A stretch of 64,000 nucleotides of DNA from a virus. Taxonomy: Duplodnaviria > Caudoviricetes. How positions within the stretch are numbered: the first letter of the stretch is position 1; every line of letters starts with the position of its first letter. A model generated the notes under the pieces. The model was not told where the DNA came from. It saw only the letters and a list, made by a program, of their open reading frames with translations, and ran no database searches. The stretch lies in IMG/VR virus record IMGVR_UViG_3300028591_000087, positions 1 to 64,000 of that record. One strand, 5' to 3'. The translations under genes were made by a program, and so were the position numbers. Positions 2,827 to 19,836 of the stretch are shown here, piece after piece.

Positions 2827-2843
2827 AATATATTACCCCATAA

Positions 2844-3230: not shown

Positions 3231-3283
3231 AAGTGTAGATCTCCTTTCTAAAATTAAAATAGACTTTATCTACATAAAGTCTA

Positions 3284-3724: not shown

Positions 3725-3728
3725 AAAA

Positions 3729-3789: not shown

Positions 3790-3792
3790 AAT

Positions 3793-3866
3793 TGGCAGGC
3801 CTTGATGGAGTCGGACCATCACATACGGAGTCAAAGTCCGTTGCGCTACCGTTACGCTAAAGGCCT
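3793..3866 (-). tRNA. tRNA-Gln(UUG)
   Basis: Cloverleaf, loop CU-UUG-AC, CCA encoded. Confidence 0.9.
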
Positions 3867-3873
3867 ATATATC

Positions 3874-3948
3874 TGGCTGGCGATCCTGGACTCGAACCAG
3901 GAACCTCGGAGTCAGAGTCCGATACGTTGCCAATTACACCAATCGCCA
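3874..3948 (-). tRNA. tRNA-Gln(CUG)
   Basis: Cloverleaf, loop CU-CUG-AC, CCA encoded. Confidence 0.92.
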
Positions 3949-3955
3949 ATAAAAA

Positions 3956-4073
3956 CTCGACACGTAATTTCTTATGCTCTACCTACTGAGCTACATATGC
4001 TGTTAACATGGTGCATGTGGCGGGACTCGAACCCGTGATAGTAAGATTACTCTTAATTTGCTGCGCGTGTCGA
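3956..4073 (-). ncRNA. CAGCAA-stem RNA copy B with circularly permuted, anticodon-less tRNA body
   Basis: Order: T arm (GGGUUCGAGUCCCG), acceptor 3' strand plus ACCA, linker, acceptor 5' strand, D arm (UAGCUCAGUAGGUAGAGC); closed by a GACAC/GUGUC stem. Confidence 0.72.
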
Positions 4074-4095
4074 AAAATATTATGATAACCAACAC

Positions 4096-4172
4096 TGGTC
4101 CGGGTGGCGGGATTCGAACCCACGACCTCCTGATCCCAAATCAGGCGCGCTACCAAACTGCGCTACACCCGG
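4096..4172 (-). tRNA. tRNA-Pro(UGG)
   Basis: Cloverleaf, loop UU-UGG-GA. Confidence 0.93.
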
Positions 4173-4177
4173 ATAAA

Positions 4178-4224
4178 CAAGGCACGATTCTTTTTAATAT
4201 CCAATTCATAGCTGTCGGTGCCTT
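4178..4224 (-). ncRNA. CAGCAA-stem RNA copy C (minimal)
   Basis: AGGCAC-CGACAGCUA...GUGCCU-UG. Confidence 0.5.
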
Positions 4225-4274
4225 TTCTCATCTTTCATATATATTATATTATATTTTTTTAAGTTTTTCAAATA

Positions 4275-4472
4275 TCATGGTTTTCCATCTGGAAATACCG
4301 GATGCGGTTTATGTGGATTTCCATGACCTGGGTTGTGATCGCAACCACCACCGCCACCAACGCCAATACCCATGTCGCCATGGCCCATATGAGAGCCACC
4401 AGAAGCAGTTATATTTTCAGTATAATCAAATACTAACTTTTCTGCTTTGGGAGTAATATAATTCTTTTTCAT
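4275..4472 (-). CDS. Small leader-core type peptide, RiPP-precursor-like
   Basis: MKKNYITPKAEKLVFDYTENITASG followed by a Gly/His/Pro-rich tail with one Cys; RBS GAAGG upstream. Confidence 0.6.
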   Translation of the reverse strand: MKKNYITPKAEKLVFDYTENITASGGSHMGHGDMGIGVGGGGGCDHNPGHGNPHKPHPVFPDGKP

Positions 4473-4495
4473 GCTTTTTACCTTCTTTAAAAATA

Positions 4496-4588
4496 TGGCG
4501 GCCCGCCTGGGATTCGAACCCAGATTACCTCCTTCAGAGGGATATAACGGTTTTAGAGACCGGTGCACTACCATTATGCTAGCGGGCT
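4496..4588 (-). tRNA. Amber suppressor tRNA(CUA) with long variable arm
   Basis: Anticodon arm CCGGU-CU-CUA-AA-ACCGU; T arm CUGGGUUCGAAUCCCAG; G73-CCA end. Confidence 0.88.
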
Positions 4589-4614
4589 ATACAGTGAATC
4601 TCTTCACTGTTTAT

Positions 4615-4643
4615 ATTATATCATTTTTTTTAATTATTGTCAA
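4615..4643 (-). promoter_or_regulatory. Sigma-A type promoter upstream of the suppressor tRNA
   Basis: TTGACA-17 nt-TATAAT on - strand. Confidence 0.75.
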
Positions 4644-4950
4644 AATTGTCCATAGTCATAATGCCATTATTACGCATATAATCTAAAACCATCTTTCGTC
4701 CAAAAACATTTAAACAACTCTAGTCATTTGGTAAACCTGACATTAATAATGAATATGGTTTTTCTCTTTCAATAAAGCCATCAGAACTCCAAATGGTATT
4801 TTCTTCTTCAATAACCATATCACGAGCCATACGAGCACGCATAACTCTAACTTGACGAACATTATTATTAATAAGATCTTCAATCATTAGATCTTCATTG
4901 ACGTTTGTATGCCCTAGTGGAAACATCAGGGCAGCGTTCTCCCATGCCAT
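4630..4950 (-). CDS. Hypothetical protein at end of radical SAM operon (1 TAG read-through)
   Basis: ATG at 4950 (MAWENAALMFP); TAG at 4720 reads through to TAA at 4630. Confidence 0.55.
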
Positions 4951-6379
4951 CTTCCTGTCTATCCTTTCTATGTTTTTGCATATTATATAATTCAGTTGCA
5001 TACATATTTTCAACAAAATCTAAAAATTGTTTAACTAATGGATATTCTAACTCATATTCTGTAATTGTGTGTAAATATGCAATAACACCCATATCAGTAT
5101 ATTTTTGAATTAAAAATTTTAATTTAGCTTTAAACATTTTACAAACACTTTCAATAGGAAAGAATGGATCATTTAAAGCTTCTTTTTGAGCGCCAAAACA
5201 TCCTTGTAAGCAATATTGATTAGCCCAACAAGTATCACATCCATAATTAGCATTACGAACATTACTCATTAAAACTTTAATGGCCATTTGTGGGTTAAAA
5301 GCTTCTATATCAATGATTTTATCATTTTCAACAACAAATTTGCCATATAATAATTTATTATAAGCTGTACGATGGCAAGGACAAATCGCTAAATCTCCTA
5401 AACGTACAGTTAAATCTGTTGCGACTGTACACCCCATGAACGTATCTGCTTGTGCAAAAGCATAATTTATATATCCAGAAATACTATTATCATTATCATT
5501 CATACCTTCTCGAATATTGAATAAATGATTAGCAAATTTTCTAATATCATTATTACAATAATTCAATAGATAATAATCAATTTCATAATTTAAATATTCC
5601 AAATATGCTTGAATGGCTTCATCTGTCCAATCATCATTACGAACTTCTAGCATCATTAAAGCAGATAAATCAAAACCATATTCATCTAACTGTTGAATCC
5701 ACCATTGAAAATTTTCAATCCAATATGGCGCACTCGCTGCAGAAACCATCGGATGAAAACAAAAATTATTATGTTTAGCAAATGAAAATATTTTATCCCA
5801 ATCTTCATCAGTTCTAACATATCCATTATTTAATGGCCGTGTTTTTTCTTCTAAAATTTTGCCATCTACTGATACACTAAATGTCAAATTATGACCAGTT
5901 TGTTTAAAAGCATCAATATAATGTTGAATTCTTGCACATGCTTTATTATTTCTTACGAAAGAACAATTAGATGCAATCATGAACCAATCAGCTTGTAAAC
6001 CTTTATTTAAATATTCGAGTGTAATTTCTAATACATCCCAACCAAATTGACTATGCCAAATTTCTCCAGTAAAAAATTCAATTTTAGGAATATGATAATT
6101 ATTTTCTAAAATATAATCATATAAAAGTCTTAAATTATGTAAAATAAGTTCTGGATCTTGAAATTCTTTTGGATATAATTCTTCATATTTTACCAAATAG
6201 CAATATGAACAATTTTGGTTACATGCTGCAGTAATATAAATTTCTAAATTCGCATCATTGCGTAATGAATATTGATTCATATCAGTTTCTTTCCATGGAT
6301 TAAAAAACCGTAAATCTAATACAGTTTTTAATAACTGATTTTGTTCTTGTTGATAAGTTATACGTTCTTCGTTTAACAT
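4895..6379 (-). CDS. Radical SAM/SPASM domain enzyme
   Basis: CNQNCSYC motif, FFTGE, SVDG; SPASM cysteines GC...ICPCH...CDTCWANQYCLQGC...C. Confidence 0.9.
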   Translation of the reverse strand: MLNEERITYQQEQNQLLKTVLDLRFFNPWKETDMNQYSLRNDANLEIYITAACNQNCSYCYLVKYEELYPKEFQDPELILHNLRLLYDYILENNYHIPKIEFFTGEIWHSQFGWDVLEITLEYLNKGLQADWFMIASNCSFVRNNKACARIQHYIDAFKQTGHNLTFSVSVDGKILEEKTRPLNNGYVRTDEDWDKIFSFAKHNNFCFHPMVSAASAPYWIENFQWWIQQLDEYGFDLSALMMLEVRNDDWTDEAIQAYLEYLNYEIDYYLLNYCNNDIRKFANHLFNIREGMNDNDNSISGYINYAFAQADTFMGCTVATDLTVRLGDLAICPCHRTAYNKLLYGKFVVENDKIIDIEAFNPQMAIKVLMSNVRNANYGCDTCWANQYCLQGCFGAQKEALNDPFFPIESVCKMFKAKLKFLIQKYTDMGVIAYLHTITEYELEYPLVKQFLDFVENMYATELYNMQKHRKDRQEDGMGERCPDVSTRAYKRQ

Positions 6380-7776
6380 AAGCAATCTCCTTGATAAATG
6401 AATTTATTAAAAGCATGTAATTCAGCATCATTTTGTATATATTGCATAGCACCATTTAATAATAATTTAAATTCTCCTAATGGTACTAATCCATATGATC
6501 CAGTAATATTATAATTGTCTTTAATACAATACGCGGTATGAGACTAAATAAATATTGCTGCTTTTAAAGCATTTTCTTCATCAATATATATCTAATCTAC
6601 TTGTCCAGCTAAAGCAAGAGCAATTATTGCCGCAGTATGAGTTGCCAAACGTGCAGAAGCATTGTTTGTATTATATAATTCCATAATATAATAATGGTTA
6701 TGTTCATACTGATCATCATTAACACACATTGATCTTGTCGCAGAACTAGCAAATTTATCAAAATTAATTGTACCTTTGTCTGCTCTTGTAGTATCATCTG
6801 CAGCTAATTTAGAATATTCTTCTGCAATTTGGACAAAACCTTCATGACAAGTAGAAACCATATTATTAGGTAGAAAACCAATACTTACATTGCCAGTCCC
6901 ACAAGTATGATATCCATATTTATATGTTAAATTATCTTGTATGATATCACCATTAAATGGAGTAATACATTCATAATAATCAAAAATATGTTCTCCATCT
7001 CTCTGTCTTTCTTCAATATGACGACATTTTTTGACAAGTCCTGCAAAAAATTTACCATCTTCAACAGTGACAGGAGAAGGGACTGCGGTATTGGGGATAC
7101 CATATATTATAAATACATTCGGAAGATTTAGTTTTTTAATTTTATCAATAAATGTATTTTCATAAAATTTATAATATGCAATAATATCATCTTCCGTTTG
7201 TAATGTTTTCATTGTATTTAAATCTAATGTGCCTTTTAAAGTAACAGTTAAATTAATATTCGCGGGTAAACGATTTTGTTTTAATAAATCAATTAATTTA
7301 TCAAAATTATTAATACATTTTTCTGTTGTACCATTTCCTCGACCAGCATCATTTAAATTTAATGGCCCATCTACAGATAATTGCAAACAATAGCTAAAAT
7401 CACGATCAGGATATTCGCCAAATATATCCATTAATCCAAAAAATTGATCACACCATTGAGGATAAGAAAAATTAGTAGATGAATAACCGTTTTTTAAATA
7501 TGGATAATATTCAATTAATTTACGTAATGTATAATGTAATCGGTCCATATGAATAAATGGTTCGCCACCCCAGGTTTCAAAATTGGTTAACATATATTTC
7601 TTAGGGAAATATTCGCGCACACGATTAAAGTAATAATCACCTTTAAATGATTCTTCTAATGCGTCATCAATTTCTTTTAAAATAGGGTTTTTATATATAT
7701 TACAATAACGGCACTATAAATTACAAGTACCACAGGTGTAAAAAATTGCTGTGTTAAAATTCTTATTATAAACCAT
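6373..7776 (-). CDS. Radical SAM enzyme, 467 aa (3 TAG read-throughs)
   Basis: ATG at 7776 with GGAGG RBS; CNL(TAG)CRYC motif, WGGEP, LSVDG; TAA at 6373 overlaps the next start. Confidence 0.85.
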
Positions 7777-7796
7777 ATAATAAATATCCTCCCAAA

Positions 7797-9476
7797 TTAA
7801 TTTGTTTTAGGATAATGAGCATTTGTGATATCAATTGTGGTTGTATTACTATGATATTGATGTTGATTTGCTTCATTAGATTTTAAACCATTTGTTTTAG
7901 CAACATTCATACAACCATTACTATTATCACCATTAGCCATAGTTCCATTGTTGTTAGTTCCATTACCTCTAGTACCATTCGTATTTGCTCCATTAGCCAT
8001 ACCATAATTTGGATTAGAACCACGACCATTAGCACCATTACCATTTGTCCCATAAGACATTGTTCCATTACTTTTTCTTCCATGACTACAAGTTCTACCA
8101 TTATCCTAATGAAATTGTTGACCACAACTATAACCATTGGCATTTAAACTATTAGCATTTACTCCATTTCCACGTGTACCATTGCTTTTTGCCCCATTAG
8201 ATTTATTACCCTCACTATTCTGTCCATTAACATTTGCTTCATTTGTTTTTAACATATAAGTATTGGTTCCATGACTACAAGTACCATTACTTCTAGAACC
8301 TGCAGTATTTATACCATGAGCATTTGGTTCATTACTATTTCCACCATTCCCTTTAGTGCCATTACTGTTGGCACCGTTGCTCCATTTAGTATTCCAATTG
8401 TTACCATTTACATGCTGTCCATTGGTCCAGGTACCGTTAGATCTATTTCCATTGCTATGAGAGCCATTGCCATTTGCGCCGTTGCCTCTATTACCATTGG
8501 AATTTGCGCCATTGCTCCAACCGCCGTTACTTCTGGTACCATTACCACGATTACCATTACTCCAACCGCCATTGCTCCAACGTCCATTGGATCTTGAACT
8601 ATTCCATTTATTACCATTACTGTTAGAACCATTGCTGTTAGAGCCATTACTGTGGGAGCCGTTGCCATTAGCACCATTACCACGATTACCATTACTATTA
8701 GCGCCATTAGACCAACCACCATTAGATCTTGTTCCATTACTATTAGCAGCATTACTGTTATAACCATTGCCCTTATTGCCATTCCAACAAGTGCCATTCC
8801 ATTTATCAGCATTACTTTTATTACCATTACTATTAGCACCATTGCCATAAGTAACATGCCATCTTAAAGTATTATAACAAGTACCATTACTATTAGACTA
8901 ATATGAATTTCTTCCTTGCCCACAAGTACCATGCTAATTCTATCCATTACCTTTGTTGCCATTAGATTTATATCCATTAGTATTAACGATATTACTATTT
9001 AAAGCATTATTATCTGCACCATTAGATTTTTGTCCATAGCTTTTTCCAGTATTTGCACCACCAACATAACATTTTCCATCCCAATAAGAACCATGACTAT
9101 TATTTTGATTGTTTTTATTTGTATTAGCTCTAACGCCTTTATTATTAGTAGCCTCGTTTTTACATTTTACTCTTGGTGCATTGGTAACTACTGTTCTAAT
9201 CTATGTTGTCTAATCAACACGAATATAGTCACCAACTCTGACAGCCGTCATTACAGGCCACCAGCTTTGCTATGTACCTAAAAATTTATCTGATCTAAAC
9301 TAATCAATTTTAGTTTTTAAATTATTTATATGTGAAGCATCAGCACGATCTCCAGCATTTGGTCCATTGCCTAAACTAGCTAAACCATTAGAATATCTGG
9401 AGGACAAATCATTAAAAGTTCTGTACCAGCTTCTAATATCAGATGATAAAATCTATTCGCCTACAGCAACTGCCAA
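7797..9476 (-). CDS. 559-aa Asn/Gly pentapeptide-repeat protein (NGxxS)n, 9 in-frame TAG
   Basis: GAGGTG RBS and TTG at 9476; single frame to TAA at 7797 when TAG is sense; NGANS NGNKS NGTRS NGGWS NGNRG... Confidence 0.82.
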
Positions 9477-9678
9477 TTTACTTCACCTCTTTATATTATA
9501 ATATCAAAAAATTTAGACTTCGTCAATCTATATATAATACAACTTTTAATAGGTAAATTATCATATATTACCCAATTTCGGGAAAAGCAGGGATCGATAT
9601 AAATGATCCCTGCCGCAATTAAAAATTCTACTTTCAAGTTTTGTCTCCCGCGTGTCGACCCTCTGCGGGCGGACCAGA

Positions 9679-10266
9679 TTACATATTCGGATTATCTGAA
9701 TAAACCGCCCAACAATAGCATCGCCAATGAAATGGTGGCAACTCATACTCATCAATCCCAACTTTAAAAATTCCATAATGCGATCTACAAATTCCTGTAT
9801 CCTTATCACAATCTGGTTCACCAGTAATTTTAACATATTCGAACAAACCTGTGCGCTCATTTAATGTATCAAATACAGTATTTCTTAAACGTCGTGATTC
9901 TAACTCAATAATATGATTAATAGAATTGATTAGATTAGCTTTATTTCTATATTTATTATAAGCTGCATAATGCCCAAAAATAGAACTATTTAAAGTCCAT
10001 CCATCTTTATGATAAATTAATTTATCTAATTCTGGGAAATTAGATAAATCTTTATCAGTAAAATTATATTCAGATTTAAACCATTCTTTAATAGCATCTA
10101 ATATATCTTCTAAAGTTTTTCGCACAAAAGACTCAGATGATCCAGCATCAGGAGATTTTGAATTTAAAATATATTCAGTATGATCTTTTTCTCCCTACTC
10201 AATTATTGGATCAGTAATATCTTTTAATCTATCAAATTCACGTGAATCTATTCTTGTACGTTTCAT
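9679..10266 (-). CDS. Protein with MuF/SPP1 gp7-like C-terminal motif (1 TAG)
   Basis: GGAGG RBS, ATG at 10266; C..C...G...LPPFHWRCYC resembles the PPxHPNCRC motif. Confidence 0.5.
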
Positions 10267-10323
10267 ATAAACCTCCAGAAATAAAAAAAATACCAGATCC
10301 AATTAGTTTATGGATCTGGGATA

Positions 10324-10398
10324 TGGTGCCTGCGGGTGGGATCGGACCACCGACCTATGGGGTATGAGTCCATTGCTCTACCACTGAGCTACACAGGC
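10324..10398 (-). tRNA. tRNA(CAU), Met or Ile2
   Basis: Loop CU-CAU-AC, CCA end. Confidence 0.85.
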
Positions 10399-10403
10399 AA
10401 AAA

Positions 10404-10517
10404 CAAGACGGACTATAAACGCGTGTTGCCATTACACCATTTCCCCATGTGGGGAAAGCTGGATTCGAACCAACAGTACGTGCTCCCTATGCAAAAGAAC
10501 TATTGCTGACCCGTCTT
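10404..10517 (-). ncRNA. CAGCAA-stem RNA copy D with permuted tRNA body
   Basis: AGACGG-GUCAGCAA, T arm GUUGGUUCGAAUCCAGC, UUUCCCC/GGGGAAA closed acceptor hairpin, D arm UGGUGUAAUGGCAACAC, CCGUCU-UG. Confidence 0.72.
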
Positions 10518-10522
10518 TGAAA

Positions 10523-10596
10523 TGGAGCGGCTAACGGGATTCGAACCCGTGAACCAACCTTGGCAAGGTCGTATGTTACCACTACATCATAGCCGC
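10523..10596 (-). tRNA. tRNA-Gly(GCC)
   Basis: Loop UU-GCC-AA. Confidence 0.92.
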
Positions 10597-10597
10597 A

Positions 10598-10672
10598 TGG
10601 GAGGTATGACAGGAGTCGAACCTGCATTCGTAGAGCCACAATCTACTGTCCTACCGTTGGACGACACACCAC
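10598..10672 (-). tRNA. tRNA-His(GUG)
   Basis: Loop UU-GUG-GC; G-1 and C73. Confidence 0.88.
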
Positions 10673-10676
10673 ATAT

Positions 10677-10778
10677 CTAGGCAGTTTCTCAATTGTTGGG
10701 AATCGAACCCAAAATGTCAGCTTTGCATGCTAATGTCTTACCTTTAGACTACAATAAAGATTTTGCTGTAACTGCCTT
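10677..10778 (-). ncRNA. CAGCAA-stem RNA copy E with D, anticodon (GCA) and T arms but no free acceptor end
   Basis: AGGCAG-UUACAGCAA...UAGUCUAAAGGUAAGAC, UUAGC-AUGCAAA-GCUGA, UUGGGUUCGAUUCCCAA...CUGCCU-AG. Confidence 0.68.
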
Positions 10779-10783
10779 ATAAG

Positions 10784-10855
10784 TACCGGCACAGGGAATC
10801 GAACCCTGGTTACCGGTTTAGAAGACCGGTGCTCTATCCGCTGAGCTATGCCGGC
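10784..10855 (-). tRNA. tRNA-Arg(UCU)
   Basis: Loop CU-UCU-AA. Confidence 0.9.
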
Positions 10856-11302
10856 TTATGCATTAATCAATCTCGGAATCACTGGCAAATATTTCTCCTG
10901 AAGTTTCTTTGTGAGAGTGCCTTTCCGCATAATATGATCTTTCATATCAGCCTGCTTAACCATAATCGCATAAAGGTTTTTAGACCTTACAATTGTGTCA
11001 ATATACTCACCATATGAATCCTCATGTTTATGAGTAAGAAGATCAACTGCGATATAGAACTTACGCCGTGTATCTTCATCCTCAATGCAGTTCTGAAGTT
11101 CACTCCAGCTGCATTTTGTATCCTCGATTACATCATGAGCAATAGCAACAGCCCGAACCATGTTCTGCTCTTCTATTGGCATCAAAACAAATCGAGGATC
11201 ATCTTCAACATATTTTGTCACCATCATTGCGTGTTCTAATTTCTTGGCGGAATAATGCTTTCGCGCACATTCGAACACGCGAGACATATCTGCTGAATTC
11301 AT
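10856..11302 (-). CDS. HD-domain hydrolase, small alarmone hydrolase/Mesh1-like
   Basis: H...AHDVIEDT...LLTH...VKQADMKD pattern of RelA/SpoT-type HD domains. Confidence 0.72.
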   Translation of the reverse strand: MNSADMSRVFECARKHYSAKKLEHAMMVTKYVEDDPRFVLMPIEEQNMVRAVAIAHDVIEDTKCSWSELQNCIEDEDTRRKFYIAVDLLTHKHEDSYGEYIDTIVRSKNLYAIMVKQADMKDHIMRKGTLTKKLQEKYLPVIPRLINA

Positions 11303-11308
11303 AATAAT

Positions 11309-11387
11309 CAAGACTCCTTTTAATAGCTACTTTTGATTAATCACTCAAATGCTGTTATTACCTTACGGTATTTGCTGTGTGAGTCTT
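11309..11387 (-). ncRNA. CAGCAA-stem RNA copy F
   Basis: AGACUC-ACACAGCAA...GAGUCU-UG. Confidence 0.6.
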
Positions 11388-11472
11388 TGGTGCGGGATGA
11401 GGGACTCGAACCCTCACACCATAAGGCACATGATCCTTAGTCATGCCTGTCTACCAGTTCCAGCAATCCCGC
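11388..11472 (-). tRNA. tRNA-Leu(AAG)
   Basis: Loop CU-AAG-GA, long variable arm. Confidence 0.9.
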
Positions 11473-11551
11473 ATAAGGTGGGGTCGTTAGACCCCTATGA
11501 AATTACCTACGGGCTCCTGCATAATGCAGTCAGTGCTCTTGCGTAGGCGAG

Positions 11552-11623
11552 TACCCACCCAGGGAATCGAACCCTGATCGATCGGTTCGTAGCCGATTAC
11601 TCTTTCCGTTAAGCTAGGCGGGC
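11552..11623 (-). tRNA. tRNA-Arg(ACG)
   Basis: Loop CU-ACG-AA. Confidence 0.88.
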
Positions 11624-11626
11624 ATA

Positions 11627-11715
11627 TGGTGACGGGTTGCCTACGGGATTTTGCGCTGGCTTTTACTCTCATGACCGTTCCGGCCGCACACGAATCTTTG
11701 AGCTTCCCGCCCGTC
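11627..11715 (-). ncRNA. ACCA-ended RNA with acceptor-like stem and non-tRNA body
   Basis: GACGGG...CCCGUC-ACCA; no T-loop consensus. Confidence 0.45.
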
Positions 11716-11791
11716 TGGTACCTGACATGGGATTCGAACCCACACTTGACTGGTTCTAAGCCAGTTGCCTCTTCCGTTGGGCTAATCAGGC
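11716..11791 (-). tRNA. tRNA(UAG anticodon, Leu) with short variable loop
   Basis: Loop CU-UAG-AA, 76 nt. Confidence 0.85.
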
Positions 11792-11880
11792 ATAAAAGGG
11801 GTAGTGAGCGATATATAGGGATTAGGAGGAATCCATCATGAAAGGAGGTATGTCGGAAACGGGTTGCTCACTACCCGAAG

Positions 11881-11960
11881 TGCCCAAGGTGGGATTCGAA
11901 CCCACACCCTTTCGGATCCGATTTTGAGTCGGACGCGTCTGCCAATTCCACCACAAGGGC
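11881..11960 (-). tRNA. tRNA-Leu(CAA)
   Basis: Loop CU-CAA-AA. Confidence 0.9.
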
Positions 11961-11964
11961 AAGT

Positions 11965-12051
11965 TGGTGCCCACGGCCGGACTCGAACCGGCACGTCCTT
12001 TCGGACAGCGGATTTTAAGTCCGCTACGTCTACCAATTCCATCACGTGGGC
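11965..12051 (-). tRNA. tRNA-Leu(UAA)
   Basis: Loop CU-UAA-AA. Confidence 0.92.
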
Positions 12052-12107
12052 ATTTCTTTATCTTACAAATATATTATATAATATATTTTTAAGATTTTCA
12101 AATCAAC

Positions 12108-12195
12108 TGGCGGACGCGGTAGGATTCGAACCTACGGGGCTTGAAGGCCCAACGGTTTTCTAGACCGCCGCCATAGTCCACTCGGCCACACGTCC
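12108..12195 (-). tRNA. tRNA-Ser(AGA)
   Basis: Loop CU-AGA-AA, long variable arm, G73. Confidence 0.88.
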
Positions 12196-12269
12196 ATAAA
12201 GCGGATTCCATTATCCTTATATGGTTTGCCGGAATCTAATACCGGAGTACACTATTGAAATCCGCTAAG

Positions 12270-12356
12270 CGCGCTCGGAAGGATTCGAACCTTCGGGCCC
12301 CAGATGGGACCAACGCCTTAGCAGGGCGCCGCTTTCGACCACTCAGCCACGAGCGC
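12270..12356 (-). tRNA. tRNA-Ser(GCU)
   Basis: Loop CU-GCU-AA, long variable arm. Confidence 0.9.
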
Positions 12357-12361
12357 AAGAA

Positions 12362-12449
12362 CTAGACACGCTTATCTTCCTGGAGCCGACCCAGTGCCTT
12401 CTTACAAATCCAAACTTCGTATCTTTAAAGAAAAATTGCTGACGTGTCT
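12362..12449 (-). ncRNA. CAGCAA-stem RNA copy G
   Basis: AGACAC-GUCAGCAA...GUGUCU-AG; internal T-arm-like CUGG-GUCGGCU-CCAG. Confidence 0.58.
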
Positions 12450-12453
12450 CGGC

Positions 12454-12527
12454 TGGAGCCTTCTATTGGAATCGAACCAATGTTCATGCTTTACGAAAGC
12501 ATTGTCCTACCATTGAACGAAGAAGGC
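12454..12527 (-). tRNA. tRNA-Thr(CGU)
   Basis: Loop UU-CGU-AA. Confidence 0.88.
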
Positions 12528-12557
12528 AAGAGGCGGTTAGCTGGACCGCCTGATGAA

Positions 12558-12875
12558 TTAAAATCCCCAAAAAGTCTTGAAGAAGTTGCGGAACGGATCA
12601 TTCAATCCAAGAATTACATCCGCGTCCTTGAGAGAAGTATGGAAGGTTCCATAGTCTTTACAGAAGGCTTGCAATTTTTCATTTGCAACTTTCTGTGCAT
12701 CAAGAGCATCCTTGATTGCAGTTTCAACTTCCTTAGCACGCTCTTCACGCTTAGCCTTTTTCTCTGCTTCAGCAGCTTTACGAGCCTTGCGCACACTCAA
12801 CGCCTTTTCTTCTGCGGCATTAAGTTCATCAACCGTGTCATATGCCTTGTTGGTTACTTCAGATAAATACTTCAT
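12558..12875 (-). CDS. Hypothetical coiled-coil protein
   Basis: AAGGAG RBS, Ala/Lys/Glu-rich, hairpin terminator downstream. Confidence 0.75.
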   Translation of the reverse strand: MKYLSEVTNKAYDTVDELNAAEEKALSVRKARKAAEAEKKAKREERAKEVETAIKDALDAQKVANEKLQAFCKDYGTFHTSLKDADVILGLNDPFRNFFKTFWGF

Positions 12876-12935
12876 AATTTCCTAATCTCCTTTATGAACA
12901 TTTTATCTTATACCGGTATAAAATTGCCTTTCGGC

Positions 12936-13009
12936 TGGAGCGCCATAACAGATTTGAACTGTCACCTGCTGCTTGGAGGGCAGTGATGCTGCCATTACAC
13001 CAATGGCGC
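12936..13009 (-). tRNA. tRNA-Gly(UCC)
   Basis: Anticodon UCC, U73-CCA. Confidence 0.88.
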
Positions 13010-13228
13010 ATAGAGGGGAACTTCCCCTCAGATCTACGGCAAGCGTGCTGGGATCTATTCTTTTGGAAGTCCCAGCGGGTTGCGCTGCGTAGGGGTGGAC
13101 CCGGGCCTTTCAGCCAGCCCAAACGGCGGTTTTTAGTCACGCTGGACAGCCTTGCGGCAGATCGTGCACTTTATACACAATCCACTACTTTTGCCGGTTG
13201 GTTACGGTAATCGCAAGTAGTCAGCGAT

Positions 13229-13305
13229 TGGTCGGGATGAGTGGATTCGAACCACTGATCTTCGCCTTATCAGAGCGCTGCACTAACCAACTGTGCTACA
13301 TCCCG
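13229..13305 (-). tRNA. tRNA-Ile(GAU)
   Basis: Loop CU-GAU-AA. Confidence 0.9.
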
Positions 13306-13521
13306 GAAGCTTCCCCTGTGTCCAAGTACAACGGTACGCACCACAGGGAGCACGGCTACAATTCACACTATTATTCGCACTCACGCGCAATAGACTTGCT
13401 TATCTCAAGTAGTAGTGTGTAATCCAGATCGCCTATCATTTCAGCTTATCTGGTTGATAAGTAGTATCTAATGGACGCCACCCTTGTGGAGAGCTGTAGC
13501 CAACTTCCTTTGTCGAGTGGG

Positions 13522-13737
13522 TTATTTAATGACGCATTTAAACTCGGCAGGATTCTCACCATATACGCGATATACTGTTACATCGCCGCCAGCACTCGTA
13601 ACAAACTCACTATATGTGCCGCCATACCGATCAATCCCTCTGTCTTCGACGATCCGATCAGTAGGGGTGTGATCAAATAGGAAATCTTTGTGTTTCTGAT
13701 GGAGTTCAGCGATTGTCATTTTCATTCGTCCTTTCAT
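13522..13737 (-). CDS. Hypothetical protein
   Basis: ORF with plausible RBS inside the tRNA array; exact start uncertain. Confidence 0.55.
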   Translation of the reverse strand: MKGRMKMTIAELHQKHKDFLFDHTPTDRIVEDRGIDRYGGTYSEFVTSAGGDVTVYRVYGENPAEFKCVIK

Positions 13738-13741
13738 CTTT

Positions 13742-13818
13742 TGGTGCCAGAGAGTGGAGTTGAACCACTGTATAGTAGATTTTCAGTCTACTGCCTTAAC
13801 CAACTTGGCGACTCTGGC
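13742..13818 (-). tRNA. tRNA-Phe(GAA)
   Basis: Loop CU-GAA-AA. Confidence 0.9.
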
Positions 13819-13821
13819 ATA

Positions 13822-13907
13822 TGGTGCGCCGGGGTGGAGTCGAACCACCGATGTTTCTTTGTAACGGATTTACAGTCCGCTGCCTTCGCCACTGGACACA
13901 CCGACGC
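13822..13907 (-). tRNA. tRNA-Tyr(GUA)
   Basis: Loop CU-GUA-AA. Confidence 0.9.
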
Positions 13908-13914
13908 ATATAAA

Positions 13915-13990
13915 TGGCGACCCTGGTGGGAATTGAACCCACGTTCTTCGGCGTGACAAGCCGACGCGTTAACCACTGCACCACAGGGCC
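13915..13990 (-). tRNA. tRNA-Asp(GUC)
   Basis: Loop UU-GUC-AC. Confidence 0.9.
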
Positions 13991-14142
13991 ATAAAACAAG
14001 GTGCTTGTACTAAACTATGTTGGTATGCACCTACCCTCATCCCAGCGTTCGTCGCTCACGAGACGATCCGTTAGCTTCACGGATCCGCCGGACCTCAACC
14101 GGCACGTCATATCCTGTCAATTCAGGCTTTATGGGATTGAAG

Positions 14143-14215
14143 CGGCCCCTGAAGGACTCGAACCTTCGACACGCTGGTTAACAGCCAGCTGCTCTGCCAA
14201 CTGAGCTAAGGGGCC
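14143..14215 (-). tRNA. tRNA-Asn(GUU)
   Basis: Loop CU-GUU-AA. Confidence 0.9.
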
Positions 14216-14350
14216 AAAATGCGGTTTACTTTGCTTCTTTGTATACCGTTTTCCACTAAGCCACATATCCCCGAAGGGCCGGTGGTAGTTGAACCGCAAA
14301 ATCCATGTTAACGGTTACTCATTTAGTTTCGTTGCCCGATGAGTACAGGC

Positions 14351-14425
14351 TGGTACCCTGTCCGGGGGTTGAACCCGGCCCTACAGCTTGAAGGGCTGTC
14401 GACTTAACCGATTGTCTAACAGGGC
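14351..14425 (-). tRNA. tRNA-Glu(UUC)
   Basis: Loop CC-UUC-AA. Confidence 0.87.
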
Positions 14426-14884
14426 ATAAGATGGAGAATTTTCAGATAGCTTATTCAGCATTTCTAAATATCTCCAAAAGTGACCTACTCCGAACTTCAT
14501 ATCGGTATGCCGCATATGGAGTCGAACCATCTTATCCAGTGGATCGCCACCGGCCGGGAACTCCACTTCCCGCCTACGGGGTTCGGTTACTAATCACCGC
14601 CTATTGCGAACTTGCGGGCGGCCTTCGCGACACCTTTAATTTCAGGTCTAAAACATACTTGCCTTACGGCGCAGGTCTGTATCTGCGCAGATCAGCACCG
14701 CCGATCGGTCGGCGCTGGCGTGAGTATCTTGATCAGAGCAGGACTTCTTATGAGCGCTCCCTTTTCTTGCTTCTGTTCAGTGGACTTGAACCACTCTCAT
14801 AAGTGTCTTTTCCTCACGACGATCCGTTATGACCTTGGACAAAGGTAGCGGTTTCTTTAACGTCGACGCCGCCAAGCTGACTCG

Positions 14885-14956
14885 TGGCGGGAGTGGGACT
14901 CGAACCCACGACTCTCAGCTTATGAGGCTGATCTGCTACCACTGCAACATCCCGCG
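14885..14956 (-). tRNA. tRNA-Met(CAU), initiator-like 5' end
   Basis: CGCGGGA start with 1:72 mismatch; loop CU-CAU-AA; lacks the 3 G-C anticodon-stem pairs of typical initiators. Confidence 0.8.
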
Positions 14957-15292
14957 ATATGAAAGAAAGTTTTCCCTCGAAAGGAGGATAACTTACAACC
15001 CTTGCGCGCAATAAGCCTTTTATTAGTCCTTAGGTTGACCCTTCTGTCAAACCATCCGACTGCTCATGCCAAGGAGCCACGGAGCTGTGAGACTTTCTTT
15101 TTGGTATTCACGCAACCTGGTGAGGATCACAGCGAGCAATCTCCAACACGTTCATATCATTTATATCCCGCATCAACGAAATCCTAGCGGTCCTCTTCGT
15201 TTGATCGCACTACAAGCGCAAGCACTTGCATCACCCACGTGAGAGATTAGTTTGGTGCAATAACGCAGTCTCCTACATCATTGTCCAAAAGT

Positions 15293-15368
15293 TGGTGACG
15301 ACACGAGGATTCGAACCTACGATTTACTGCTTGAGAGGCAGTCGGCCTGACCTTTAGCCGATGTCGCC
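15293..15368 (-). tRNA. tRNA-Glu(CUC)
   Basis: Loop CU-CUC-AA. Confidence 0.85.
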
Positions 15369-15574
15369 ATATGGGGCTTACGCCCCGAATCGGTTTAAAC
15401 TATTTTTTATACTCATCACCGTAGTTTGAGTTGAGTCGATATCATGTCTCGTGCCCTCTGCACTCCACGGGGCAGGGTTTTCTTTGAAGGGTTTTCCTTC
15501 CCTTACCTTACATATATATAATATCAAATTTTTTTAAATTTTTCAAGTGACTTTCATAATGGTTGGATTTGAGA

Positions 15575-15844
15575 TCAATCAAACTCAGCAATGAACTCAT
15601 CGCCCCAGCTGATGTTTGCAACCTTCATGATGCACCTAAAGCACTCTTCAATTTCCATATCATAATCATTGGTGAGATCCCACTCATCATCTGGAATGAA
15701 ATCCCGCATCAGATTGCCATCGCAATCAAAGCGTTCATCATACAGATTATATATGTCGCTCGGATCCACATTAAGTTTCTTGGCAACCTTTTCTGCAATC
15801 TTCCAGATCTTTACCACAGGCAGCGTTCTTACAATATCAGCCAT
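15575..15844 (-). CDS. Hypothetical acidic protein
   Basis: Own promoter and GGAGG RBS. Confidence 0.65.
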   Translation of the reverse strand: MADIVRTLPVVKIWKIAEKVAKKLNVDPSDIYNLYDERFDCDGNLMRDFIPDDEWDLTNDYDMEIEECFRCIMKVANISWGDEFIAEFD

Positions 15845-15900
15845 TTCTTTTTCCCTCCCTCAACCTTACATATATATAATATCATAATTTTTTATATTTT

Positions 15901-16368
15901 TCAAATTGAGGGTTTTGACCACTCTTGTACTTGCATACCATGAGCAGCAAACCATTGCTGGATCGGCACGCGCTCGCTACATTTATTGGTAGGAGCCTCA
16001 TGCACGATCAAAGCAAAGTTTACATCTCCAAGGCTCGGTTCATTCTCCAATATTCGTGTTCTAAGCTATTCAAATCTTGCTTTGACTTCTTCGAAGTTGA
16101 GCTGGCTAAGTTGAACTGCATATCGTAATAAGAATTGACAACTCTCCGGCTCCATTCCACAAGATGGACCGCAATAGCCACCGAGATCCGGGCCAGGTGC
16201 AAATATAGGTGCTCGAATACCATTGATAACGCCTCGCTTATCTTTGAATTGATAATCTTGACCTTGGTTATTGTGGAACCACTTAGGATCCCAAACTGCC
16301 GTAGATATAGGAATCAGGTTAGGTGGAAAAAACCTAACCTGATAGAAGTAGCTTGTGTATATCGTCAT
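15901..16368 (-). CDS. DUF488-like protein (1 TAG read-through)
   Basis: IYTSYF...PISTA..PKW N-terminus; continues past TAG at 16066 to LIVHEAPTNKCSER...TGA at 15901. Confidence 0.6.
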
Positions 16369-17501
16369 ACAAGATACCTCGCAGGTCCATAGTCGGGAAC
16401 CTTCTTTAGTACCATTCTGTCGATCTTACATTCATTCATGATCTGAGCCATTTCTTTGGCACGTTCATCACTCAAATCATAGAAGTCATCAGCATCCCAA
16501 TGAGGGAAGCTAATCTTCTCATTGATGATATACTCATCACCCACCATATGTGCCAACGCAGGAATGAAATATGTGGTGAACTCGGTAGGGAAATCATCTT
16601 TTCCTTCCTTTTCCTTATACCGACGAACCCGCAAGTAATGGGACTCATGATCTCCCAAGTTGACACGTTCACTCCACGCTTCAAAACAAAGCCCGTTGCT
16701 GAGGTAGAGTTTAATGTCAAATTTCATACGGTTGACACGGGTGATATTCAGATCAGACATAGCTTCTTTCAGGCTATATCCCTGGTTCAGTTCGAAGCAA
16801 ATCGCACGTAAAAAGTCATATGGCATATCTATCACACCAGATAGATTCACTACATCGTCGATTGCTTCTTGGTACTCTGGTAGTACTTTATCCATCATAT
16901 ACTCACGCACTTCATCTTGTGCAGGAGCACACATGGCAAAATGATAATGGAAGCGGCCAGGTCTGTTCAACATATACTGGCTAATATCTTCCAATTTATT
17001 GCAAGTCACAATGAAAAGTTTATGTCCACCATCAATGCCATCAAATAGTGAAAGTAATTCATCCTGTGGATTCCAATCCTCTTGCTTCGCAAAAGTCTTT
17101 TCAAACTCATCAAAAATGACTACACAATCTTGATCAATAGAGGAAATAAAGTCTGCAAGACCAGCAATAGCCGCACTCACAACAATCACAGGAAGATTAT
17201 CCTGGATCGCACGATCGGCTACTAGCCGCACAAATAGACTCTTACCAATACCCTTTTGACCAGAAAGAAGGACTCCGAAATTTCGATCCATAAGATGATA
17301 AGATTTCATAACCTTATCAACTTTGGCGGAACTGGATCCATATATCTTATCTTCGGTTACAGTAAGATCATGCCGAGCAGTAAGATAAAAACCGGTCATC
17401 TTATTAAACTCAACATTATATGACCCAACCGGAAGATTCCGAAAGGTTTTTACATCTTCTCCATATACTTGGTATCTGCTACCCGCATTTACTATATTCA
17501 T
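16365..17501 (-). CDS. AAA+ ATPase
   Basis: Walker A GQKGIGKS, Walker B VIFDEFEK, SRH motif NRPGRF. Confidence 0.9.
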   Translation of the reverse strand: MNIVNAGSRYQVYGEDVKTFRNLPVGSYNVEFNKMTGFYLTARHDLTVTEDKIYGSSSAKVDKVMKSYHLMDRNFGVLLSGQKGIGKSLFVRLVADRAIQDNLPVIVVSAAIAGLADFISSIDQDCVVIFDEFEKTFAKQEDWNPQDELLSLFDGIDGGHKLFIVTCNKLEDISQYMLNRPGRFHYHFAMCAPAQDEVREYMMDKVLPEYQEAIDDVVNLSGVIDMPYDFLRAICFELNQGYSLKEAMSDLNITRVNRMKFDIKLYLSNGLCFEAWSERVNLGDHESHYLRVRRYKEKEGKDDFPTEFTTYFIPALAHMVGDEYIINEKISFPHWDADDFYDLSDERAKEMAQIMNECKIDRMVLKKVPDYGPARYLV

Positions 17502-17626
17502 TACATTACTCCTCTTGACTAAATAAAGCCCTGCGCGGGTCCAGTATTGCTCGGCATTTCAGGCTTGCCCCGGACCTATTGTGAAATTTGCTGGGAGAAT
17601 TTCTATACCATTACCGCACGCGCGAA

Positions 17627-17697
17627 CAGGCACCCAAGGACTCGAACCTTGACCAACGGTTTTGGAGACCGACATGCTACCATTACACCAGGCACCT
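17627..17697 (-). tRNA. tRNA-Trp(CCA)
   Basis: Loop CU-CCA-AA. Confidence 0.9.
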
Positions 17698-17757
17698 ATA
17701 AGGGAACCCAAGATGGTGCAGGCACCTTCCTGGGCGGGCATAAGCCCTAATACAAAG

Positions 17758-17831
17758 TCGGGATGACAGGATTCGAACCTGCGGCTTCTTGGTCCCTAAC
17801 CAAGCGGTCTACCAAACTGAGCTACATCCCG
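17758..17831 (-). tRNA. tRNA-Pro(AGG)
   Basis: Loop UU-AGG-GA. Confidence 0.88.
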
Positions 17832-17838
17832 ATATGAG

Positions 17839-17910
17839 AGGTTCCAGTGGGAGTCGAACCCACTAACAAGGGTTTTGCAGACCCATCCCCGGCCGACGAG
17901 GGTTGGAACC
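17839..17910 (-). tRNA. tRNA-Cys(GCA)
   Basis: Loop CU-GCA-AA, U73. Confidence 0.85.
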
Positions 17911-17968
17911 TATATTGACGATTATCGTTTTCGTCTCATATACCATCACATTCTTTCTTATTTACTAG

Positions 17969-18040
17969 TGCCCGTGGCGAGAATCGAACTCGCGATGCAC
18001 AGATTAAAAGTCTGTTGCCATACCACTTGGCTACACGAGC
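17969..18040 (-). tRNA. tRNA-Lys(UUU)
   Basis: Loop CU-UUU-AA. Confidence 0.9.
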
Positions 18041-18043
18041 ATA

Positions 18044-18195
18044 TGGTGGACAATGGGGGATTTGAACCCCAATCCGTTCCCGTTTTCAAAAACGTGCCTT
18101 TCGGATGTGGCTTTAGGTCGACCACGCTAACGCAGTACCGCTCTTTGGCTACGGCTGATAACTCGGATGCTCCCCTGATGCATCAATCATTGCCC
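18044..18195 (-). ncRNA. 152-nt tRNA-like RNA with G3-U70 acceptor stem, T arm and ACCA
   Basis: GGGCAAUG...GGGGUUCAAAUCCCC-CAUUGUCC-ACCA with an expanded interior. Confidence 0.65.
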
Positions 18196-18288
18196 ATAAA
18201 AAGGTGCGGCGGAAGAGTTGCGGATACTACTCGGCCTCTTGCTACGGGTCTCATTACCAACGCCGCATATGTGTCACCTTGCCAGGTG

Positions 18289-18366
18289 TGGTGGAGCCAG
18301 TGGGATTCGAACCCACGACCCCCTGCTTGCAAGGCAGGTGCTCTAGCCAGGCTGAGCTATGACCCC
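18289..18366 (-). tRNA. tRNA-Ala(UGC)
   Basis: Loop CU-UGC-AA. Confidence 0.92.
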
Positions 18367-18374
18367 ATATTGTA

Positions 18375-18527
18375 ACTTGGGTGTGCTATTACGCCAAAGG
18401 AAGCCGCCATTATCCATAAGGCACCGTACATAGGACGACTAGTTTGCGTAGCCTATGATGGCTTTTTCGCCGCTGGGGCATCCCCACTCCTTAGCTGATG
18501 GCTGCTTTTAAGCCTACAGTCCCAAGT
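18375..18527 (-). ncRNA. RNA resembling the 23S rRNA L11-binding domain (H43/H44)
   Basis: GUAGGCUUAAAAGCAGCCAUCAGCUAAGGAGU...GCGUAAUAGCACAC inside an ACUUGGG/CCCAAGU stem. Confidence 0.62.
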
Positions 18528-18658
18528 GGTCTGGAGGGTTTTCCCGCGTAGCAACGGTTATCCTTCTCCATGCAGGTTTGATTTCTGGAGCTCAACCTAC
18601 TGAACGTCTCCGAAGCCTTTTCTAATTCGATTTCTCCTATTCGGTAGCTACATTGGCC

Positions 18659-18734
18659 TGGTCCGGGGTGACGGGCTCGAACCGCCGACTTCCTGCTTGT
18701 AAGGCAGGCGCTCTCCCAGCTGAGCTAACCCCGG
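18659..18734 (-). tRNA. tRNA-Val(UAC)
   Basis: Loop CU-UAC-AA. Confidence 0.92.
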
Positions 18735-18870
18735 ATAAAATGAACAGTGCAAGCGGTGATCTTGCCAAACGCGGTATCGCCTATATCCGTGCAGCGAGCG
18801 TTGGTAACCATCCAACGGCTTCCACCCACTGCATGGGGATTCGAACCCCTACACTACGTTCCTGTCGAAG

Positions 18871-18943
<73 letters not shown>

Positions 18944-19178
18944 ATAAAGATCATATGGTTAGCGTTTGGCGATCGTGCCAGTTAACGCCAGCCCCGTGTT
19001 CTTACTAACCTTTGTACGATTTATCGCGATTTACGTACTCGGCTTACTAGCCTCAGCTTTCAGAGCGTTGCCCCATGTGTCATATTTGGAAACCAGAGAG
19101 ATTTTCTTTAGGGCTTTTGCCCTTCCCTCATCTTCCTTATATATAATATCAAAAATTTTTAAAGTTTTCAAATGACTC

Positions 19179-19400
19179 TTAGCTTAGCGCGATTACGGAG
19201 TTCATATCCCAGATACAAATATCCATAAAATCTGCACCCTCACCAAATAATTCATTAAAATATTTGGCCGCACGAGAGTAATCTTCAGTACCATCTTTCT
19301 CTTTAGTCGCATCCCGCATAAAGATTGCATCGGCATGCCGAGCATCTTTAATGGCATTGACAAACATATAGATTTTTTGGATCCTCTCTTGATTTGTCAT
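19179..19400 (-). CDS. Hypothetical protein
   Basis: AGGAGG RBS. Confidence 0.65.
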   Translation of the reverse strand: MTNQERIQKIYMFVNAIKDARHADAIFMRDATKEKDGTEDYSRAAKYFNELFGEGADFMDICIWDMNSVIALS

Positions 19401-19424
19401 TTGAAAACCTCCTTTTGACATTAT

Positions 19425-19500
19425 TGGTCGGGCACCCTGGATTCGAACCAGGGACCAGCTGTTTATAAGACAGCCACTCTTACCACTGAGTTAGTGCCCG
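19425..19500 (-). tRNA. tRNA-Ile(UAU)
   Basis: Loop CU-UAU-AA. Confidence 0.88.
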
Positions 19501-19503
19501 ATA

Positions 19504-19836
19504 TGGTGGAGCTGACGGGAATTGAACCCGTGTCCGAACCACAACACATATCAAGAAATACTTACGCGATAGCCAGATTTAGGTGATGGCGCACACAAAG
19601 GATAAACCGGATATCTCCACCACTCGCCTTTTAGGTTAGCGAGAAACCACGAGCCAAGGATTCTTTGATCCGCAAGTGTTTACCTCTTGGCAGGACACTG
19701 TTTAGGAGTCTCAGCCTTATCAGGCAGCGAGACGATCTTCGAAATAATTGTCAATTCTTTTTCTTTGCTGCTTAAGGCGCACCGCCTACCCGCGTTCTTG
19801 ATACTCATCATGACCCGTCGAAACCAAATCAGCCCC
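19504..19836 (-). ncRNA. ssrA: tmRNA
   Basis: 5' GGGGCUGAUUUGGUUUCGAC; 3' GGUUCAAUUCCCGUCAGCUCCACCA; tag frame DNYFEDRLAA followed by two stops. Confidence 0.93.

Follow-up and report, generated by a model that had tools for sequence, protein, structure and literature searches.

A phage RNA family that copies the ribosomal GTPase-associated centre

The minus strand of positions 18375-18527, within the tRNA array of a large rumen phage, encodes a free-standing copy of the GTPase-associated centre (GAC) of 23S rRNA, and this copy is one member of a large family of phage RNAs. The fold is established by covariation, and membership of the family is established as well. The element lies in the window analysed here, i.e., the first 64 kb of a contig of 193,102 bp with 38.5% G+C. 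It spans approximately E. coli positions 1049-1110 and therefore includes the three-way junction described for positions 1051-1108 (PMC2952862).

The first-pass annotation of this stretch had read a 7-bp closing stem on the minus strand that encloses both halves of the GAC, in order and with no other rRNA nearby. This reading was confirmed letter by letter, and no further rRNA matches were found anywhere in the 64-kb window. The likeness to the GAC was likewise borne out, since the element represents a selected copy of the tip of helix 42 (H42) together with helices 43 and 44 (H43 and H44), the fold-defining features of which are kept in 168 relatives. The insert that had been estimated at approximately 95 nt is present, with a measured length of 91 nt. 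Two parts of the earlier account had to be revised: the element is not a one-off, and what appeared as an insert is a conserved domain of the family.

Anatomy of the element and its likeness to 23S rRNA

All parts of the element and its neighbours are listed with their coordinates in Table 1. Equivalent positions were numbered by counting along two real 23S sequences retrieved by search (L134 and L332), with UUAAA as U1082-A1086 (PMC6689051) and the location of 1095-1098 within the helix 44 loop (PMC8661411) serving as anchors.

Table 1. Position of the GAC mimic, its parts, neighbouring genes and matching RNA-library contigs in the window.
Feature	Position	Strand	Remarks
PTH2 peptidyl-tRNA hydrolase gene	3284-3724	minus	E 3.7e-21; beside tRNA array
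Suppressor tRNA(CUA)	4496-4588	minus	
AAA-type ATPase gene	16365-17501	minus	E 1.3e-11; inside tRNA array; diverged counterpart in tail copy
tRNA-Ala(UGC)	18289-18366	minus	starts 8 nt past the mimic
Whole GAC-mimic RNA	18375-18527	minus	153 bases, first to last base of closing stem
Closing stem, 3' strand CCCAAGU	18375-18381	minus	1104-1110 equivalents
Helix 44 hairpin GC-GUAAUA-GC (1091-1100), then ACA (1101-1103)	18382-18394	minus	hairpin 18385-18394
UUUG linker from insert to helix 44 hairpin	18395-18398	minus	family frequencies
Insert between 1090 and 1091 equivalents	18395-18485	minus	91 nt, measured from sequence
Accessory domain within insert	18399-18485	minus	RNAalifold and pair counts, 11 subfamily members
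GAGU	18486-18489	minus	1087-1090 equivalents; insert begins immediately 3'
C-UAA-G	18490-18494	minus	copy of 1082-1086 trinucleotide loop with Watson-Crick closing pair
A1056 equivalent and helix 43 copy	18495-18520	minus	helix 43 copy proper 18495-18519
Closing stem, 5' strand ACUUGGG (H42 tip)	18521-18527	minus	1049-1055 equivalents; pairs with 18375-18381
tRNA-Val(UAC)	18659-18734	minus	upstream neighbour
tmRNA	19504-19836	minus	
RNA-library contig X1 (P1)	18316-18728		413 nt; depth 138
RNA-library contig X2 (P2)	18301-18600		300 nt; depth 40.7
RNA-library contig X10 (P5, size-fractionated)	18379-18569		191 nt; depth 18.9

The closing stem stops after 7 bp, with the next bases, C18528 and U18374, being unpaired, and it provides the GGG/CCC G-C pairs at the tip of H42. 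The architecture of helix 43 is complete, consisting of a 3-bp lower stem (CUG/CAG), 2 unpaired bases (U1060 and N1061, here A1061), a 3-bp upper stem (GGC/GCC) and a 9-nt loop, which reads UUAAAAGCA and carries an A at 1067 and an A instead of G at 1068. The motif of positions 1082-1086 has a described role in GAC folding (PMC6689051), and the adenines of its UAA loop, A1084 and A1085, dock on the G-C pairs at the H42 tip (PMC1919483, PMC6689051). Helix 44 retains its hairpin and the GUAAUA loop, and its 5' strand is split by 91 nt between 1090 and 1091, a break that puts a junction in place of the internal loop. The accessory domain that fills this break has a base stem, an irregular hairpin whose internal loop is conserved, and a small hairpin with AUAAUGG after it.

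The two-part pattern formed by the GAC halves matched once in the 64-kb window and in none of 100 dinucleotide shuffles. An alignment to LSU rRNA, as the first-pass annotation had proposed, supported the assignment as well: when the 292-nt spacer between tRNA-Val and tRNA-Ala was analysed with cmscan in E-value mode, a single match was obtained, which corresponds to the GAC part of LSU_rRNA_archaea (model positions 1183-1230; E 7.5e-4), though its 19.2 bits do not reach the gathering score of 50. Identity to real Bacillota 23S rRNA (L332 and L134) amounts to 29 of 40 letters in the 5' half and 13 of 18 in the 3' half, and the differences are mostly two-sided pair changes (A-U to C-G at 1057-1081, U-A to C-G at 1082-1086, and changes at the H42 tip). 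The element is not a 23S rRNA gene, being below the gathering thresholds of LSU_rRNA_bacteria and LSU_rRNA_archaea and without flanking rRNA domains. It should be noted that the single-sequence minimum free energy fold was no more stable than those of shuffled sequences (z 0.24 and -0.93) and mispaired 1081-1089 with the end of the insert; the structure therefore rests on comparison and not on energy.

Conservation of the family and of its inserted domain

An 18-letter helix 43 pattern run over viral contigs matched at least 118 loci. Among the loci listed, all except L026 and L045 continue with the 1080-1090 string and then diverge into an insert, save for L016, which leads directly into the helix 44 loop, and none of them runs on as real 23S rRNA. 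The second scan, which was anchored on the 3' half, also matched at least 118 loci; the matches listed include 13 without an upstream helix 43 and 89 distinct elements with one. Pooling resulted in 168 distinct elements from viral contigs, prophages and four cultured phages, a minimum number, as the pool was built from the matches listed. The search for homologues in other phages that had been suggested from the initial reading was thus productive.

The closing stem (1049-1055/1104-1110) is paired in 78-98% of the 168 elements, with all four Watson-Crick types at most positions, while control registers (-1, +1 and +2) gave 1-73% paired, except for 1055 at +1, which reached 92% because C1105 follows C1104. 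Within the fold, compensatory changes are found for the pairs 1057-1081 (A-U in 119 elements, C-G in 22), 1058-1080 (U-A in 61, G-C in 49, A-U in 32, C-G in 9) and 1082-1086 (U-A in 74, C-G in 50, A-U in 16). Besides the latter, covarying pair, features kept across the 168 elements are U1060, G1071, C1072, A1084 and A1085, the G-C pairs at the H42 tip, and G1093-A1095 as well as A1098 in the helix 44 loop; in this loop G1093, U1094, A1095 and A1098 are kept and 1096 and 1097 vary. Positions 1087-1090 read GAGU in 140/168. Among the 89 elements listed from the 3'-half scan, U1060, U1066, G1071 and C1072 are invariant (89/89). The best-kept parts of the family are the two factor-facing hairpin loops, 1065-1073 and 1093-1098.

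Position 1067 is A in 74, G in 11, C in 3 and U in 1 of these 89 mimics, compared to A in 95 and G in 24 of 119 sampled loci of real 23S rRNA. Using a looser A1067 to discriminate between conservation for fold and uL11 and conservation for factor contact was therefore dropped, as real 23S is similarly variable. Positions 1061, 1068 and 1070 are more variable in the mimics than in real 23S; G1068 and A1070 are invariant or nearly so in the 119 real sequences, and the A1068 of the window element occurs in none of them (0/119). A1056 was also discarded as a mark of the mimics (G in 91 and A in 72 of 168), since both letters occur in real 23S.

Several marks are specific to the family. The insert always enters between 1090 and 1091; its length ranges from 27 to 369 nt (median 136) across the 168 elements, and the first three pairs of its base stem are formed in 143-152 of 167 relatives. 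The linker before G1091 is UUUG in 146 and UUUA in 12 of the 168, and positions 1101-1104 read ACAC in 150, with A1101 present in nearly all; real 23S has U at 1101 in 119/119 sampled loci. The insert, the linker and A1101 thus indicate that the family does not consist of repeated captures of host rRNA. The window element carries all four family marks, i.e., the self-closing covarying stem, the insert after GAGU with its base stem, the UUUG linker and A1101. Furthermore, one bacterial genome holds both a real 23S rRNA and a mimic, the H43 and H44 of which are nearly identical, with differences in the insert, position 1101 and the closing stem.

The insert of the window element falls into a subfamily that is marked by a conserved internal loop of its own. 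For the eleven members closest to the window element, including both copies of its own contig (alignment A1), RNAalifold predicted 39 pairs, 23 of which are changed on both sides. Paired cells amounted to 94.3%, compared to 78.1% in shuffles, and the 23 two-sided changes compare with 14 +/- 2 in shuffles (none of 500 reached 23) and 6-11 in slid controls, although the structure was derived from the same sequences as were tested and is thus somewhat favoured. At the end of the insert, a module consisting of a hairpin plus GGUAAGG was found with a strict pattern in 44 of 190 elements (0 expected) and with a relaxed pattern of the hairpin and UAA, which includes both copies of the window's contig, in 57 of 190 (1.5 expected). 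Both recurrent modules are combined in a prophage-borne mimic of Clostridiaceae bacterium strain 9 (L328, QXXE01000019.1), which joins the internal-loop hairpin of the window's subfamily to the CACCCC...GGUAAGG hairpin of a Pseudomonas-phage subfamily; this combination suggests one ancestral insert design.

No Rfam matches were found by cmscan in the inserts. Strings such as AGUA and GAA, seen by eye in some inserts, had raised the possibility of a sarcin-ricin-loop copy or a kink-turn, but this was rejected, as there was no cmscan match and the strings are not kept in the window copy. A pairing of the UUUG linker with U1083-R1086 was likewise given no support by the separate counts of the two sides: U1086 occurs in 16/168 and an AUUG linker only once.

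Genomic setting, carriers and RNA-library contigs

The window's tRNA array comprises 35 tRNA genes and the tmRNA, all on the minus strand. Association with tRNA genes is common in the family: a tRNA lies within 600 nt of the mimic at 39 of 60 loci checked, on the same strand every time, and within 5 kb at 58 of 75. Another conserved RNA-like element (18545-18655, minus strand) was observed in the stretch from tRNA-Val to the mimic. This element, the core of which comprises approximately 75 nt and is nearly identical in both contig copies, shows little variation and has no Rfam match; in 5 other viral contigs it likewise lies after a tRNA, with no mimic after it.

Positions 172,958-193,102, the final 20 kb of the contig, are a collinear copy of 44-19,611 with 65-95% identity, which contains 30 further tRNAs and a second mimic at about 192,055-192,230. 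The latter has a 106-nt insert and a C at 1067, and the contig ends inside a second copy of the tmRNA. Either this tail copy is a genuine duplication, or two strains were joined in the assembly. TAG read-through extends the longest frame from 1,502 to 3,763 codons, and read-through of TGA or TAA gives no gain; together with the suppressor tRNA(CUA), this points to a phage that reads TAG as a sense codon. PTH2 and the tmRNA make up a ribosome-rescue tool kit.

Protein clusters were compared at 101 loci, taking flanks of up to 5 kb in either direction, and no linked protein partner was found within this range; the commonest cluster (metallophosphoesterase-like) occurs at 7 loci, followed by a GIY-YIG endonuclease (6), an RNA-repair HAD domain (HAD_SAK_2; 5) and an RNA ligase (4). 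The window's own genome has no uL11 gene, no ribosomal-protein gene adjoins the mimic, and no Rfam leader family matches.

Four cultured phages carry the mimic without annotation, namely the Pseudomonas phages pf16, Astolliot and UNO-G1W1 and the Aeromonas phage 4_4572. In pf16, it sits between tRNA-Asn and tRNA-Pro. In UNO-G1W1 (L561 667-774, PP551948.2), a hypothetical protein of 35 codons is annotated opposite the mimic strand, which is probably a spurious call over an RNA gene. A blastn search of the 5' half against cultured phages returned no match at E 0.01, a limit for which the query is too short; at E 10 it returned 24 records, and the five inspected were the four true mimics and one real 23S. 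We also observed an unannotated contiguous real 23S rRNA in Paenibacillus phage Pd_22F (L134, MZ092003.1, approximately 83,400-85,200), probably host DNA in the assembly. Bacterial assemblies (596 Gb) gave 74 matches to the 3' motif, 28 of which are true mimics, including some from gut Bacillota isolates; the other 46 are without H43, look like chance matches to a 17-mer and were discarded. Prophage copies are present in bacterial chromosomes, and the hosts of the carriers belong to many phyla.

Logan-assembled contigs from rumen RNA libraries of three studies match the element with 0 mismatches (Table 1); in run X9, the mimic is barely covered. These contigs indicate presence only, giving neither ends, strand nor level, and DNA is possible in such libraries, which makes them weak evidence of transcription. 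The nearly empty flanking bins (18046-18227 and 18956-19137) were not usable, as neither uncovered parts nor contig depth can rank expression. Some contigs from other organisms join 18398-18403 to 18484-18486, omitting 80-87 nt, as would be expected from real 23S or from mimics whose inserts differ.

Candidate ligands and relation to known systems

The fold-defining features of the GAC persist in 168 relatives, and the element is therefore most naturally read as a scaffold or decoy for some GAC ligand, with uL11 as the obvious candidate. We propose that a stable RNA freed from the tRNA transcript presents a free GAC and most likely captures host uL11, a proposal to which we give an even chance. 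The element closely matches the domain of E. coli positions 1051-1108, which is the minimal uL11-binding RNA, and this match makes uL11 the likeliest ligand. The gene would be transcribed together with the tRNA array, and the RNA would probably be released by tRNA-processing enzymes, with an RNase P cut at the 5' end of tRNA-Ala, 8 nt downstream, setting or trimming its 3' side. It would then fold as a self-closed copy of the GAC with the accessory domain grafted between 1090 and 1091, and its GAC-shaped surface may, by molecular mimicry off the ribosome, capture some ligand of the ribosomal GAC. If this ligand is uL11, host ribosomes would be altered in their handling of uL11-dependent factors. 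The phage might gain from blunted uL11-dependent stress signalling or from changed termination or, under the alternatives weighed below, from the diversion of a GAC-targeting enzyme or the sponging of translation factors.

Several points count against uL11 capture. A free RNA would face competition for uL11 from tens of thousands of ribosomes, the insert lies inside the 5' strand of helix 44, so that a free uL11 surface is not assured, and conservation does not single out uL11, as 1067 varies alike in mimics and real 23S. The greater variability of 1061, 1068 and 1070 in the mimics also counts against it.

A bolder version of uL11 capture concerns the genetic code of this phage: the two GAC copies might pull uL11 from ribosomes and weaken RF1 at UAG, so that the suppressor tRNA(CUA) wins the codon. 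The N-terminal domain of uL11 contacts domain 1 of RF1 (PMC3677378) and overexpression of the C-terminal domain of L11 raises amber suppression (PMC6100177), and uL11 capture could thus help tRNA(CUA) to beat RF1. However, a tRNA(CUA) lies within 5 kb at only 6 of 75 other family loci (a count without a control sample, which speaks for neither enrichment nor absence), and carriers such as pf16 show no sign of recoding. An effect on RF1 would therefore be at most one use of a broader uL11 capture, and we consider it quite improbable; if true, it would represent an RNA decoy that helps a virus, here a phage reading TAG as glutamine, to impose its genetic code.

Other explanations have to be weighed against capture of uL11. 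An enzyme directed against the GAC, such as a defence effector or a competitor toxin that modifies or cuts H43/H44, may be soaked up by abundant free copies of the mimic acting as inhibitor or decoy substrate, and the ribosomes that the phage needs would be spared. This would agree with the location among tRNAs, as phage tRNAs are thought to counter RNA-targeting defences, with the recurrence, though rare, of RNA-repair genes nearby (HAD_SAK_2 at 5 and RNA ligase at 4 of 101 loci), and with a helix 44 loop in which G1093, U1094, A1095 and A1098 are kept and 1096/1097 vary. An enzyme of this kind exists: Tre23 ADP-ribosylates 23S rRNA within 1095-1098 of helix 44 and blocks the GTPase activity of EF-G (PMC8661411), but it is an interbacterial weapon delivered by type VI secretion and not a phage defence. 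Hosts from many phyla would require an equally widespread attacker, and no immunity-type or hydrolase gene is linked to the mimic at the 101 loci. Anti-phage systems directed at the GAC are not known to us, and none was found in the literature searched for such systems. Altogether, we regard a decoy for an attacking enzyme as unlikely, yet as the foremost of the alternatives to uL11 capture. The conservation of the factor-facing loops (1065-1073 and 1093-1098), together with the heavy investment of this phage in translation (35 tRNAs, tmRNA, PTH2 and a suppressor tRNA), would also suit a role as sponge or platform in which the RNA binds, with or without uL11, translation factors such as EF-G, EF-Tu together with tRNA elbows, IF2, RF3 or RelA-associated complexes, and by which translation or the stringent response might be retuned. 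On the ribosome, however, factors also depend on the sarcin-ricin loop and the L7/L12 stalk for binding, whereas the element is without the kink-turn 42 (Kt-42) part of the L10 site and cmscan revealed no sarcin-ricin-like part in the insert; moreover, the variation of G1068 and A1070 in the mimics argues against full factor function. Such a sponge, which corresponds to the wider idea of the first-pass annotation, appears doubtful to us, and neither L10 nor RelA as a ligand finds direct support in these data.

Still less probable is that the mimic serves the structure or processing of the tRNA transcript (as a spacer, nuclease entry site or stabiliser) and that its likeness to the GAC is inherited from a captured rRNA piece and disused. 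Mimics do occur in tRNA arrays on the tRNA strand, the present one ending 8 nt before tRNA-Ala, but a spacer would not hold unpaired loop and junction nucleotides invariant across 89-168 diverged elements, tRNA genes are absent within 5 kb at 17 of 75 loci, and copies exist in prophages of bacterial chromosomes; we consider this very improbable. Finally, phage records can carry real rRNA, as the contiguous 23S of Pd_22F illustrates, which might be taken to suggest that the element is an assembly artefact or a dead piece of captured host 23S. This can practically be dismissed: the element is self-closed, has its own conserved insert, linker and A1101, covaries in 168 relatives and differs from the real 23S of the same cell, and the window contains no other rRNA.

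If free-standing copies of the GAC are carried by phages of many habitats and host phyla, phages manipulate a core site of translation through RNA. The copied site binds uL11 and meets EF-G, EF-Tu, RF1 and RF3; thiopeptide antibiotics act on it, as does at least one bacterial toxin. The identity of the partner would open up a conflict between phage and host over translation, be it over the stringent response, over termination and recoding, or over protection from ribosome-targeting enzymes, and the four cultured carriers make the function directly testable. Structural work could draw on the family for naturally occurring, stabilised GAC variants in which one site tolerates an insertion. The present case contributes two diverged copies on one contig and a TAG-recoded setting, and its analysis adds family-wide numbers for the insert site, linker and A1101, the comparison of a mimic with a 23S rRNA of the same genome, the cultured carriers, the RNA-library contigs and the lack of a linked protein gene.

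Rfam 15 contains no family for the GAC mimic, and no description of a phage RNA copying the GAC was found in the full-text literature searched, which largely leaves out subscription journals. The closest known structure is the bacterial 23S GAC itself (E. coli 1051-1108), which has in common with the mimic the helices, the hairpin loops, the 1082-1086 loop, the helix 44 hexaloop and the H42-tip G-C pairs that receive A1084/A1085 (PMC1919483, PMC6689051, PMC2952862). In contrast to it, the mimic is located outside an rRNA gene and encoded by phages among tRNA genes, is closed by its own 7-bp stem without kink-turn 42, contains a folded domain of 91 nt, including the UUUG linker, between 1090 and 1091, and has A for U at 1101 and A for G at 1068. 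Furthermore, helix 44 is continuous in the 23S GAC (G1087-C1102, then 1091-1092/1099-1100), whereas its 5' strand is interrupted in the mimic. The base of the L10(L12)4 stalk needs H42 with kink-turn 42, L10 extending from the junction to Kt-42 (PMC2952862), while the stem of the mimic ends after 7 bp; L10, which the first-pass annotation had named as a further possible ligand, is therefore not favoured.

The principle of copying an rRNA site and competing with it is shared with the autoregulatory sites of ribosomal proteins, such as that of uL1 on the L11-L1 operon mRNA and the L10 leader (PMC10931766). These leaders are loose imitations that act in cis in cellular mRNAs, just upstream of the regulated gene, whereas the mimic is free-standing, near-exact and viral, with no ribosomal-protein gene nearby and no match to an Rfam leader. 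Phage tRNAs that replace cleaved host tRNAs, RNA anti-CRISPRs and mimics of antitoxin RNAs are, in turn, small phage RNAs that divert a protein by copying, none of which, to our knowledge, imitates an rRNA domain. While mimicry of rRNA sites as such is known from ribosomal-protein leaders, what would be new here is its trans-acting, viral setting.
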